64,000 nucleotides of DNA from contig OX597815.1 of the NCBI GenBank assembly GCA_951406725.2, positions 163,556,001 to 163,620,000 on the forward strand, given 5' to 3'. The DNA is from Octopus vulgaris (lineage: Eukaryota). This document shows positions 17,961 to 21,582 of the stretch, in pieces (the first letter of the stretch is position 1; each line of letters opens with the position of its first letter). A program made the translations under genes and the position numbers. Below the pieces are notes generated by a model. The model ran no database searches. It was not told where the DNA came from and saw only the letters and a program-made list of their open reading frames with translations.

Positions 17961-18013
<53 letters not shown>

Positions 18014-18093
18014 GTGGAAAGGAACACACGAGTTGATATATATGAAAAAACAAGTCAAAAATAGAAAATGCTAAGATGATTTTATAGTGAATC

Positions 18094-18137
18094 TTTCAGT
18101 ACCGGTTTCGGTCATTTTGAGACCTTTTCAACTGTAA
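18094..18137 (-). ncRNA. Minimal hammerhead ribozyme, U3-A8 variant, in the PLE 3' end
   Basis: Minus strand reads cag-UUGAAAA-GGUC(ucaaaau)GACC-GAAA-C-CG-GUA-cug. The C3-G8 pair is replaced by compensatory U3-A8, and stem III is palindromic (ACCGGU). Confidence 0.8.
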
Positions 18138-18485
18138 CGATTAAATAATTAAATTTAGAAAAATTAGAAGAAAAGTTTTTTTAAAAGAATATTTCTGTAG
18201 TAGTGTTCAGATATAAGTAGCATTCTGCTTTTCTCTGACTCCCTTGTTTGCGCTTGTGTGTTCGAGGTCGTTTTGAGTTCTTGGTTGGATAGGTGAAGAA
18301 TAATGAGGCTGATGTGGAGAGGGGTGGGGAAATCTGGGAATGCCTTAATGGTCGTATTTTGAATGGTCAGTGGCTGACAGTGGCTGACAGTAGTCGCAGT
18401 TCAATTCAGGAATTGTTTATGGAATTTGCGTAGGCGTTATACTGAAAGACATTAGTGACAAGGTTAAGGGGTGGAAGGTGGAGAA

Positions 18486-18776: not shown

Positions 18777-21106
18777 TTAATTGTTTGTCGTAGACCCGTT
18801 AAGAAGTGGTTTGTATTTTGTAATAAAGAGATTTTCTTTACTTATTCGTTGTCTCGAGGTTGTATCGTCCCTAAATTGGTAGAGGGGGAAAATTCTGAAG
18901 TTTGGTGTTTTTTTGTTGGCGCAAGTATCTATGTGTTGGCTAAAAGCTATTTTTCTGTTTTGGGGAATTTTTATCTGGGATCTGTGCAGGGCCATTCGTT
19001 TACGCAAACCATTTTTTGTTTGGCCTATGTACTGCTCTTGACACCCGGAGCAGGTTAGTGAGTATATTAGGTTCTCCGAAGCACATGTGAAGTTGCTTTT
19101 CACTGTAAACCGTTGTCCCTGTTTGAAGGAGAACTCTGATCCTTCAATTAGATAGTCGCATATCCCGCAATTGGGTCTTCCACATTTTTTTACTGTCGGC
19201 TTCTGTGTTGAAGAGTGAATTCGGGCTTGTGTAAGGAGACTTTTCATGGATCTAGGCTGTCTTTTGCTTTTTATGATCGTGTGTGTTTGGAGGATTGTGT
19301 TCATTCTGTGGTCTTTTTTTAGGAGGGGTATGTTGTGGAGGATGGTGTCGAAGGCTTCGTTATTGAGAGGGTTGTGTGTGGAGATGTATGGTAAGGCTTT
19401 TGGTTGTAAGTTTTTCTTTGATTTGGGATGTCTCAGTTCCTTGATGTTAAGTTGAAGGGCACGTTGAATGCACTTGTCAATAAGTGAAGGTGGATAGTTC
19501 CTGGTGATAAGGGTATCTTTTAGTTCTTGTAGTCGTGTGTCTCTAGTGTTTGCGTTAGAGACTATAGTGCATATCCTTTTTGCTAAATTGAAGGGGATAT
19601 TCATCCTGGTGTGTCTGGGGTGGCATGAATTGAATGGAAGATATTGCTTAGAGTCTGTAGGCTTATAGTATATGTCTGTTTCTATTATATTATTAGCTTT
19701 CTTAATGAGGATATCGAGGAAGGGGAGTTGTTGTTGGCTATATTCCATCGTGAATTGGATGTTTACGTCCAGTCCGTTTAAAATTTTCTGGAATTCTATG
19801 AGTTTTTCTATATTTTTATGCCAAAGGATGAAACAGTCATCTAGATATCTCTTCCAGTTGTTTTCTATGTAGATAGAGAAAGGACTGCCATATCTTTCTA
19901 GAACCTTACGATACAGACTGATCTCTAGGTATCCTATGACTAGATTGGCAAAGGAGGGGGCCATTCGTGTGCCCATCGCAGTCCCCGATTTTTGTCGGTA
20001 GAAGTTGTCATTGAAGGCGAAGAAGTTATTTTCCAGGATGAATTTAACCCCTTCTATCACAAATTCTTTTTTGATGCGGTGTGGTAGTCGTTGGCGTGAT
20101 TCTCTAGCCAGAATTGGATTGCCTCTAGTCCTAGGTTGTGGGGGATATTGGAGTAGAGGTTGACTTCATCGAAGGATACCAGTATGGTGTTTTTGTTTAT
20201 AGTATTCGGTAGGTGATTGAGCATATCTAAGTCGTCCCTTATATAACTTTTGACATGTTTGAGGAGTGGTTTTAACAGGGTGTCTAAAAAGTTACTGAGG
20301 CGGTGGGTTTCGCATGCGGGACCTGCTATTATGGGTCTCAATTTGAGGTCATTAGGATTAGGGACTTTAATTATTTTGTCTGTAGCTATCTTGCATGCGT
20401 TGCTTATTTTTTCACTTTTGTGGATCTTAGGTATACCGTAGAATTGGCTAGTTTTACTTGTGAAATTGGTCATATAATCATATTCTTTGTCGGTGAGCCC
20501 TGCTTTGTATGGGTTTAATATGGATTTTAGTTCCCTCATTATTTTTTGTTGACTGTAGTTTTGTGCCTTTTCATAGTATGTTGTGTCTTCCAGCATAGAA
20601 AGTACCAAAGTTATGTAAAAAGTCGTATCCATTAAGACAACAGCACTCCCTTTATCGGCCTCTTTGATTGTTATTGTTTTATCTTGTTTTAATTTGTTCA
20701 ACTCAGCCCATTCTTTTTTGCTGAAGTTTGGTTTGTGTTTTTGTTTGTGCATATGTTGATATGGGTAATTAGATATGTGGTCACAGAAATCATCAAGTGT
20801 TTTGTTCTTACCTTTCGAGGGGGTGTAGTTACTCCTATTTCTGGCTAACGATTCGTCCTCGTTGTATTTATCGTATAGCTCCTCAGTAAGTCTTAATTTT
20901 CTGCAGAATTCTGCGATGTCTTCTTTCATTTCGTTGTAGTTGGGGTGTTGTGGGGTGGGTGTAAACTTGAGTCCTTTGGAAAGTATGTTAATTTGGTTTG
21001 CTGTTAGTTCCTTGTGAGTTAGATTGATAATTTTTATTACTTTTGGTTCCTCCTGCTTGTTTGGTGCTATCTTGTGTCTCTGTGTTTGCGTATTGGGTCT
21101 AAAAAA
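18777..21106 (-). pseudogene. PLE RT-GIY-YIG polyprotein, single 1-bp deletion near 20089
   Basis: Motifs IINLTHKELT..LSKGLKFTPTP (upstream of the annotated ATG, same frame), IKEADKGSAVV, FYGIPKIHK, LRPIIAG, LVSFDEVNLYSNIP, QKSGTAMGTRMAPSFANL, RYLDD, FLDI, YYKPTD, CGRPNCGIC, NLIYSLTCSGCQEQYIGQT. Adding one base joins ORFs 20057-20929 and 18777-20060 (..AN(E/D)LPHRIKKEFVIEGVK..). Confidence 0.93.
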
Positions 21107-21369
21107 TGAATGCGGTGGTTGGGACGTTAGCTATTATATAGTTGTTCTTTGTTGATGTGGGGTCTCCTGTTGTGATTTATGGTGTGTGTTCTTGGAGCAG
21201 TATTGAGGAGAGCATCCCGATATCCCATATTCGGGTGTGGTGTTCTAGGAGGCCTTCGTTGGTAATCATTGTAAGTGGCGTGGGTTTGTTGTGCATGGTT
21301 GTTTAACCGGTTTATGGGGCGGAGATTTCGTTGGTAACTCTTTTGGGTGGGGATAAGGTTGCAGTGTCT
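21071..21369 (-). pseudogene. C-terminal remnant of a putative upstream ORF of the PLE
   Basis: Frame reads RHCNLIPTQKSYQRNLRP...MGYRDALLNTAPR...EQLYNS*RPNHRIHFLDPIRKHRDTR*. It is open for ~80 codons from the truncation point, has one internal TAA at 21127-21129, and overlaps the RT frame past a T TTT TTA heptamer. Confidence 0.5.
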
Positions 21370-21582
21370 ATATATATATATATATTCTGTTCAGTTTAGA
21401 TCGTTTAATTTCAATACAAGATTGACTTTCATTATGAGCAACAACCCTTTCTTTCTTTCTTTGCTTCACTTTATTTACATTTTTTATAGATCTGTTACAT
21501 AATTCATACTTATTAATTTGCGAAAACTTTTCTCATATTGTATGTATGTATAATATACTTGCATATGTTACCTCTCCCTTTC

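Follow-up and report, generated by a model that had tools for sequence, protein, structure and literature searches.

Canonical endonuclease-bearing Penelope-like elements (EN+ PLEs) are described in the text of PMC8557442 as having just one open reading frame (ORF). The legend to Fig. 1 of that paper also includes an ORF1 separable by a frameshift with a pseudoknot, and the clades concerned are unnamed in its text. The same text defines a CX2-5CxxC linker motif for Neptune and Nematis. Two-ORF Neptune-like PLEs, in which an ORF1 encoding an SGNH esterase lies upstream of the reverse transcriptase (RT) and endonuclease (EN), have been described (PMC3905857, PMC5408684), and a killifish Neptune likewise has two ORFs (PMC12602865). 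The main texts of these three papers make no mention of frameshifting for these elements. Here we describe a PLE copy on the minus strand of a 64,000-nucleotide stretch of Octopus vulgaris DNA (assembly GCA_951406725.2, contig OX597815.1, positions 163,556,001 to 163,620,000; hereafter the window), in which a separate ORF1 overlaps the RT-endonuclease frame at a slippery heptamer, U_UUU_UUA. Judged from sequence, −1 frameshifting at this site is very likely, and we put the probability that it is triggered by ribosome collision at a little under 0.6. An earlier, sequence-only reading of this DNA had proposed a gag-pol-like two-ORF strategy against a background of single-ORF EN+ PLEs. The strategy is supported, in that layout, phase and conservation are observed and the slip itself would follow from them; the background holds for the canonical elements and not for those of the Fig. 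1 legend.

Among PLEs without an endonuclease, Athena and Coprina reportedly carry an ORF1 that is joined to the RT by a −1 frameshift with a pseudoknot as stimulator. The window family would share this ORF1-RT frameshift, and also a coiled-coil-rich ORF1, whereas the window element has an endonuclease and is non-telomeric. HIV-1 gag-pol has the same heptamer, as the sequence-only reading had pointed out, and the same logic of an ORF1 product beside an ORF1-RT product. It belongs to another retroelement class and uses a stem-loop stimulator (PMC8915115), whereas none is found in the window. Escherichia coli collision reporters (PMC6815119) share a heptamer that lacks an RNA stimulator and lies one ribosome length before a slow stop. 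These constructs are artificial and bacterial and use 9 codons, whereas the putative cassette of the window family is natural and eukaryotic and has 10 codons kept by evolution. Compared with the Neptune clade as described in the text of PMC8557442, the window family shares the RT, the GIY-YIG domain with CCHH residues, the CX2-5CxxC linker, (TA)n flanks and, in degenerate form, possibly a 3' hammerhead-like motif. It differs in having a separate ORF1 of an unnamed family and a −1 site, with no pseudoknot in the window copy. Searches of the open literature, which leaves subscription papers, Repbase and figures outside its scope (these may describe a Neptune frameshift), found no mention of a helical ORF1 family of this kind, of spacings of 10, 20-21 or 30-31 codons, or of natural collision-driven frameshifting. 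The ORF1 family and the stop spacing are new; PLE frameshifting as such is already in print in the legend cited above (PMC8557442).

The heptamer TTTTTTA lies at 21106-21100 of the minus strand, where the sequence-only reading had placed it, and is the sole XXXYYY-type heptamer in the overlap of the two frames (21130-21067). Its phase is also as described there: the upstream frame reads ..R-I-H-F-L, and the RT frame, one base 5', reads ..S-F-F-R-P-N-T-Q. TAA TAG at 21136-21131 shuts the RT frame, in which no Met occurs until residue 68, past both IINLT and LSKGLKFTPTP. Apart from a TAA at 21129-21127, the upstream frame is uninterrupted from 21369 to its TAG (21069-21067), which lies 10 codons past the heptamer and not 9; this corrects the earlier count. 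The junction thus holds an X_XXY_YYZ heptamer in phase within an ORF overlap, as in the canonical eukaryotic signal for programmed −1 ribosomal frameshifting. A single RT-endonuclease ORF with a start of its own is not found, as the RT frame is closed upstream, has no Met before its motifs and follows a separate ORF1. Elsewhere in 11 related loci, in-phase TTTTTT[AG] turns up at only 2 of 9518 codon positions, or about 0.005 per 25-codon overlap, so the heptamer is not a product of chance. A break inside the RT near 20087 was absent from the earlier reading.

The window copy is degraded, and a decayed single ORF has to be weighed against a genuine two-ORF junction. On that account, one base was lost near 21130 from one continuous ORF. 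A single event there would remove all three stops, another one-base loss does lie inside the RT of this copy, and single-ORF relatives exist further off (L012, L083, P0064-P0092). Contigs from four sequencing runs (X1, X7, X19 and X20; three organisms) were aligned to window positions 19950-21420. These assembled contigs represent other copies of the element; X1 and X7 were guessed to be RNA and may be DNA. Place 21127 differs at full or near-full depth in X1 (30.4/30.4), X7 (8.01/8.01), X19 (48578.5/48674.4, 35 contigs) and X20 (25.2/25.2), and the TAA is read as the sense codon TAC in all four. The stop is therefore a substitution specific to this copy, as had been suspected, and not a fixed stop of the upstream frame. 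No indel appears between 20681 and 21420 among the 40 best-supported of 308 differences, so neither a continuous-ORF consensus nor a local indel was found. The RT break serves as a control: contigs of all four runs carry one extra base behind 20087, and the method hence detects one-base events. X1 record 6 spans 21008-21357 with five differences that leave the heptamer, both RT-frame stops and the ORF1 stop unchanged. X1 record 7 is ungapped at the site with 22 differences in 191 letters, and X7 record 28 bridges it ungapped with 8 differences (7 listed). The relatives, moreover, have two ORFs. The one-base-loss account was accordingly rejected and retains a negligible probability. The nearest contigs differ from the window copy by about 1-1.6%, which makes the family young, and contigs of other copies reach 284-640 letters further upstream than the window copy does.

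Conservation of the junction was followed in animal DNA within metagenome and genome-bin collections, which yielded at least 87 related loci (80 of at least 322 confirmed stretches were kept); the N-terminal RT motif is present in 56 of the 87. A quick RT tree, from which L005 and L010 were left out as too short and in which L013 and L040 were not included, places the window inside an 18-row clade (SH-aLRT 99). In all 11 clade rows with DNA, an upstream ORF overlaps the RT frame in −1 geometry. The related junctions comprise 13 loci (L001-L006, L008, L010, L011, L040, L047, L081 and L101), several of them sister pairs, so that about 10 families are represented with the window included. An in-phase U_UUU_UUA/G is present in 11 of these 13, and 4 of the 11 have no AG; L101 has a Tyr-Phe site, and L040 is decayed, with five Ts. 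Two-ORF layout, heptamer and phase, which the sequence-only reading could propose for one copy, therefore recur in distant relatives. In all 12 clade loci, Phe is encoded by UUU, Leu by UUA/G, and the preceding base is U; only one of the 12, window included, has an in-frame ATG between the site and the first RT motif.

Beyond the clade, in-phase sites occur in four elements whose ORF1s we take from their motifs to be of the SGNH type, in one endonuclease-less element (A_AAA_AAC) and in one coral-bin element, while other distant elements are single-ORF. Among 14 further junctions from two contaminated bins and one more, an ORF1 with a −1 overlap and a site is seen only in L101 (listed twice) and L122. 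The four esterase-type elements are soil-metagenome PLEs (L020:1-3500, L021:1917-5674, L026 and L043) with a 600-aa ORF1 ending in an SGNH-esterase-like domain (GDSN...DGxH). Their frames overlap at U_UUU_UUA or U_UUA_AAC, with the stop 11, 10, 0 and 1 codons past the site, and L020 has both linker and GIY-YIG. They share with the window family an ORF1 before RT-EN and in-phase heptamers, whereas the ORF1 of the window clade has no esterase and no Pfam match. Several esterase-type elements also stop 0-1 codons past the site, unlike the 10 in the window. The endonuclease-less PLE L069:67-3341 combines a 395-codon ORF1 and A_AAA_AAC with 10 codons to TAA-C and no structure, and L045:1690-3579 has a 630-codon ORF1 with a −1 overlap, a G_GAU_UUU-type site and a stop 2 codons on. 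A hand reading of repeat CL27 in the supplement of the killifish study (PMC12602865) gives an apparent esterase-type first ORF in −1 overlap with the RT frame, with G_UUA_AAU right before its stop. Database entries around these elements are mixed. Animal PLEs turn up in the bacterial genome bins G001-G004 (163 matches in G003), and symbionts are given as the source of RT and ORF1 proteins (P0033, P0257), both cases of host contamination. The Mytilus gene model P0061 joins part of ORF1 to the RT N-terminus, probably via a predicted intron over the junction. In viral contigs, 187 and 86 pattern matches gave no confirmed element.

The distance from the slip site to the ORF1 stop is the feature that sets these junctions apart. 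In DNA, the stop lies 10 codons past the site in 7 of the 12 clade loci (the rest have 12, 12, 17, 19 and 20) and in 2 of the 6 loci scored outside the clade. The footprint idea preceded the use of proteins as a test. Of the best 150 ORF1 matches, 46 were dropped for want of a full tail, leaving 104, and another 29 that had no Phe-Leu (FL), leaving 75. FL was scored within the last 47 residues, and the last FL was taken as the slip site. Exactly 10 codons separate FL from the stop in 27 of the 75 proteins, 20-21 in 11 and 30-31 in 5; a single spacing is below 10, and 31 fall elsewhere between 11 and 40. Geometric nulls predict 2.2-2.7 proteins at 10 and 26-43 below 10. The ten spacer residues themselves share a mean identity of only 9.5%. 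After clustering at 45% identity, a spacing of 10 is found in 13 of 46 clusters and one of 20-21 in 9. On a quick ORF1 tree, where the tail fragment P0182 forms a very long branch, the label "10" requires 10 changes (7 forced; median end branches 0.66), and the label "20-21" requires 10 changes for 11 rows. P0172 entered the tree, peak and clustering counts at its earlier FL (24) rather than at 0. Ten-codon endings also occur in 6 of the 29 FL-less ORF1s as Phe+10 and in 6 of 13 further ORF1 matches as FL+10. Six proteins (P0136, P0137, P0148, P0151, P0161 and P0211) end in x-Phe + 10 instead of Phe-Leu + 10, and L101 has Tyr-Phe + 15, which points to other heptamers that have UUU at the A site.

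No RNA structure takes the place of a stimulator in the window. As the sequence-only reading had noted by eye, there is no downstream stem: the 80 nt past the site fold at −0.9 kcal/mol (z +1.06), and a stem-loop or pseudoknot 5-9 nt downstream is absent. Among 18 loci, 3 have such a structure at 0.07 of shuffles or lower. No conservation across loci was found for downstream stems, pseudoknots or long-range pairings, the best long-range duplex being equalled by 2 of 20 shuffles, and no downstream sequence motif is evident with the sites lined up. The family thus has no shared RNA stimulator. The 30 bases past the site are U-poor, with a fraction of 0.03-0.13 in 10 of the 12 clade loci against 0.13-0.35 further on. 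The base after the stop is C in 7 of the 9 loci with ten codons and in none of the 7 with 11-20 (background 0.18), counts that represent 7 families only. The stops at ten-codon sites are TAG or TAA, not TGA. In the window, in 7/12 clade loci and in 27/75 proteins, the slip site lies one ribosome length ahead of a putative stall site, without an RNA stimulator.

These features are consistent with a model in which most ribosomes would translate ORF1 and terminate, and a minority would slip back one base on U_UUU_UUA to produce an ORF1-RT-endonuclease fusion, as in gag-pol. The roadblock would be the preceding ribosome, paused at the ORF1 stop, rather than an RNA fold. At a spacing of 10 codons, a trailing ribosome stacked in the wider of two states would have UUU in its P site and UUA in its A site, and the next step forward would be the hindered one. 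Spacings of 20-21 and 30-31 codons would then correspond to the second and third places in a queue, and C at +4 of the ORF1 stop may slow termination. Several published observations fit such a scheme. Stalling of a ribosome at UGA in E. coli reporters makes the trailing one more prone to a −1 shift, with a peak at 9 spacer codons, the bacterial footprint (PMC6815119). In mouse disomes, 10 codons separate the leading from the lagging ribosome, and two states occur that differ by one codon (PMC7397865). Stop codons in yeast and human cells show an excess of disomes, and readthrough increases with C at +4 in every eukaryote tested (both PMC9661723). We lean slightly towards extending the scheme to this animal PLE clade as a whole, which would then use natural, programmed, collision-driven −1 frameshifting with slip sites 10, 20-21 or 30-31 codons upstream of the stop.

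Several observations weigh against a collision trigger. The spacing is not 10 in 48 of the 75 ORF1 proteins and matches none of 10, 20-21 and 30-31 in 32 of them; some of these are decayed copies (P0206 resembles P0104 read beyond its stop), but not all. The DNA-checked loci include spacings of 12, 12, 15, 17 and 19 codons, and esterase-type and other distant relatives stop 0-4 codons past the site (L026, L043, L045 and L061). The label "10" groups on the tree, with 10 changes where shuffling gives 22.3, so inheritance explains part of the ten-codon spacing, and the binomial p values ignore kinship. The peak at 20-21 (11/47 against 3.5 expected, scan-corrected p 0.01) and that at 30-31 were both examined after the data had been seen. 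Taking the last FL as the slip site is an assumption in the proteins, checked against DNA for the related loci only, and the stop-context count draws on few families. A hairpin or pseudoknot beats or nearly beats shuffles in L047, L021 and L011, and the fold of L001 reaches z −2.9. In SARS-CoV-2, a near stop is given another role, that of clearing ribosomes so that the pseudoknot can refold, although that model needs a pseudoknot (PMC8168617). Gene calls for P0001-P0007, the closest seven proteins, put a Met a little ahead of the first motif, so that reinitiation keeps some scope, and an AG follows the T run in 8 of the 12 clade loci, as a splice site would have it.

The strongest competitor accepts the −1 frameshift and attributes it to the slipperiness of the site itself, protein binding, the nascent ORF1 chain or RNA folds specific to single families, with the spacing inherited or kept for some other reason such as tail length. 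This is a possibility to be taken seriously, though a doubtful one. All evidence for the slip site itself suits it, as do the 32 spacings that fit no footprint multiple, the clustering of the spacing label on the tree and the structures in L047, L021 and L011. It accounts less readily for a spacer whose length is kept while its ten residues are not, for the near absence of spacings below 10 and for the repeated origin of the 20-21 class. Nor would it predict that 10 codons reappear in the esterase-type L021 and the endonuclease-less L069, or that the lined-up sites show no downstream motif. Production of the RT by termination-reinitiation at or near the ORF1 stop, from AUG or a near-cognate codon and with FL a mere protein motif, appears improbable. 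L1 ORF2 and SART1 are translated by such a route, P0001-P0007 start as M-[V/A/E], 25-41 residues ahead of LxKGL, the ORF1 TAG of the window copy is overlapped by an ATA of the RT frame, and L047 has an ATG just past the stop. Against this stand the 11 of 12 clade loci that have no in-frame ATG before the first motif, and the habit of gene callers, evident within the NLS motif, to write M for other start codons too. Selection for a protein motif would not hold UUU, UUA/G and a preceding U constant in all 12 loci, and the open RT frame reaches back to the site rather than just to the stop. Slightly less probable again is a reading raised as an alternative by the sequence-only account, namely that the T run and AG form a 3' splice site joining the RT to an upstream exon. 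Although PLEs can hold introns (PMC8557442) and most clade loci have the AG, it is missing in 4 of the 12, and a branch-point-like CTAAC exists only via the private change of the window copy. Contigs of the two runs guessed to be RNA are unspliced, a weak point as they may be DNA, and no joint at 21099 is found among 15 of the 23 joints in the contigs. Splicing would also explain neither the phase nor the spacing to the ORF1 stop. Collision-driven slippage is preferred over these routes. The two-ORF junction is real and conserved, −1 frameshifting at it is very probable, and the spacing rule is its surprising part.

The ORF1 family is large and lacks a recognized relative. Four full ORF1s could be aligned, and their profile retrieves 877 clusters at 50% identity; the best 150 of these are 113-546 aa long, and none reaches the length of a fusion. 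In the relatives, ORF1 has 350-470 aa and is helical with a disordered tail. A structure model likewise gives long helices followed by a disordered tail (pLDDT 74, pTM 0.58). ORF1 has no match at the cut-off in Pfam, and Foldseek finds none for the model in the PDB and viral libraries at E<=0.001. The best VIA-align match (Z 9.1, rmsd 5.6, 147 residues) reflects generic helical bundles, and the best Atlas value is 0.77. Such missing matches do not show a new fold. The ORF1 tail in the window gave nothing at E<=10 against 7 candidates among longer proteins, and nothing by blastp against the 150 ORF1 matches; going by its RT clade, it would belong to the family of the relatives. By likeness to other retroelement ORF1s, the protein is probably an oligomerising, RNA-packaging one. 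Of the 104 ORF1 tails, 43 contain a short motif resembling S/T-Y-A-x-[AVI], and the window has a similar GYRDALL in the 21219-21200 region.

The element itself is a single 5'-cut PLE between two (TA)n tracts in repeat-rich animal DNA (Table 1). Its RT-endonuclease is split over two frames (21130-20057 and 20165-18777, minus strand) and is 55-62% identical to P0001-P0006, full-length relatives with an RT; most distant full-length relatives have both RT and GIY-YIG, and the closest named proteins come from bivalves or bivalve symbiont bins. In this broken copy, the matches to RVT_1 (19 bits, E 0.0012) and GIY-YIG (21.9 bits, E 0.00022) stay just or well below the Pfam cut-off. The CCHH residues follow the order LIY..C-x2-C..YIG and then two His, with the Cys pair between GIY and YIG. 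The Rfam match to Hammerhead_HH9 reaches 22.9 bits (E 0.031) against a gathering score of 52, and its fold is no better than shuffles. A PLE-type RT followed by a C-terminal GIY-YIG domain, the linker motif and the CCHH residues are all Neptune (EN+ PLE) features, and (TA)n on both flanks agrees with a (TA)n target preference, as seen in one copy only. Pseudo-LTRs or tandem terminal repeats were not found within the 5'-cut window copy. Since the RT tree contains no named Neptune or Nematis reference elements, we use the label "Neptune-like". The window copy is dead though its family has two ORFs, and it is most likely a 5'-cut, (TA)n-inserted member of a young two-ORF Neptune-like EN+ PLE family.

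Table 1. Features of the Penelope-like element copy, in window coordinates
Feature	Position	Strand	Basis or remark
(TA)n, 5' edge of copy	21369..21385	.	Repeat listing
ORF1 3' remnant, about 100 codons of low-complexity tail, 5'-cut	21067..21369	-	Translation; ends ..H-F-L + 10 codons + TAG
TAA TAG closing RT frame, 8 codons upstream of slip site	21131..21136	-	Translation
TAA, nonsense change private to copy	21127..21129	-	Other copies read TAC
Slippery heptamer U_UUU_UUA, phased for −1 from ORF1 to RT	21100..21106	-	Translation, relatives
Unstructured 10-codon spacer, slip site to ORF1 stop; 1 U in 30 bases	21070..21099	-	Fold, base counts
ORF1 stop TAG then C; proposed pause site of leading ribosome	21066..21069	-	+4 base; termination presumed slower
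RT-endonuclease ORF from slip site; one-base loss near 20087	18777..21106	-	Two frames
C-x4-C-x2-C linker motif, Neptune/Nematis type	19158..19184	-	Read off translation
GIY-YIG endonuclease with CCHH residues	18807..19070	-	Translation, Pfam
Degenerate hammerhead-like motif near 3' end	18081..18145	-	Rfam
(TA)n, 3' edge of copy	17963..18010	.	Repeat listing

The 3' untranslated part of the element has TCT/TCA trinucleotide runs at 18680-18480, ahead of the hammerhead-like motif. In two relatives, a second ORF1 follows RT-EN (L003:3896-5071 and L006:3304-4020), and L003 forms a tandem unit of about 3.7 kb. Elsewhere in the window, a 384-bp inverted repeat (885-1268/1525-1908, 99% identity) is interleaved with a 182-bp direct repeat (1289-1469/1835-2016, 98% identity).

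The two-ORF organization bears on how EN+ PLEs are annotated. Many of them have two ORFs, the first from a large family (877 clusters at 50% identity) that is unnamed and has been overlooked in annotation, and the database RT proteins of two-ORF EN+ PLEs are probably cut short at the N-terminus. If collision does drive the shift, RNA folds and bound proteins would be joined by one more class of frameshift stimulator. Structure-less slippery sites could then not be dismissed, and searches for cellular frameshifting should look one footprint before stop codons. The family offers dozens of independent natural cassettes and a clear prediction of peaks at 10 and 20-21 codons. For the elements themselves, RT output would rise with the ribosome load on the element RNA.

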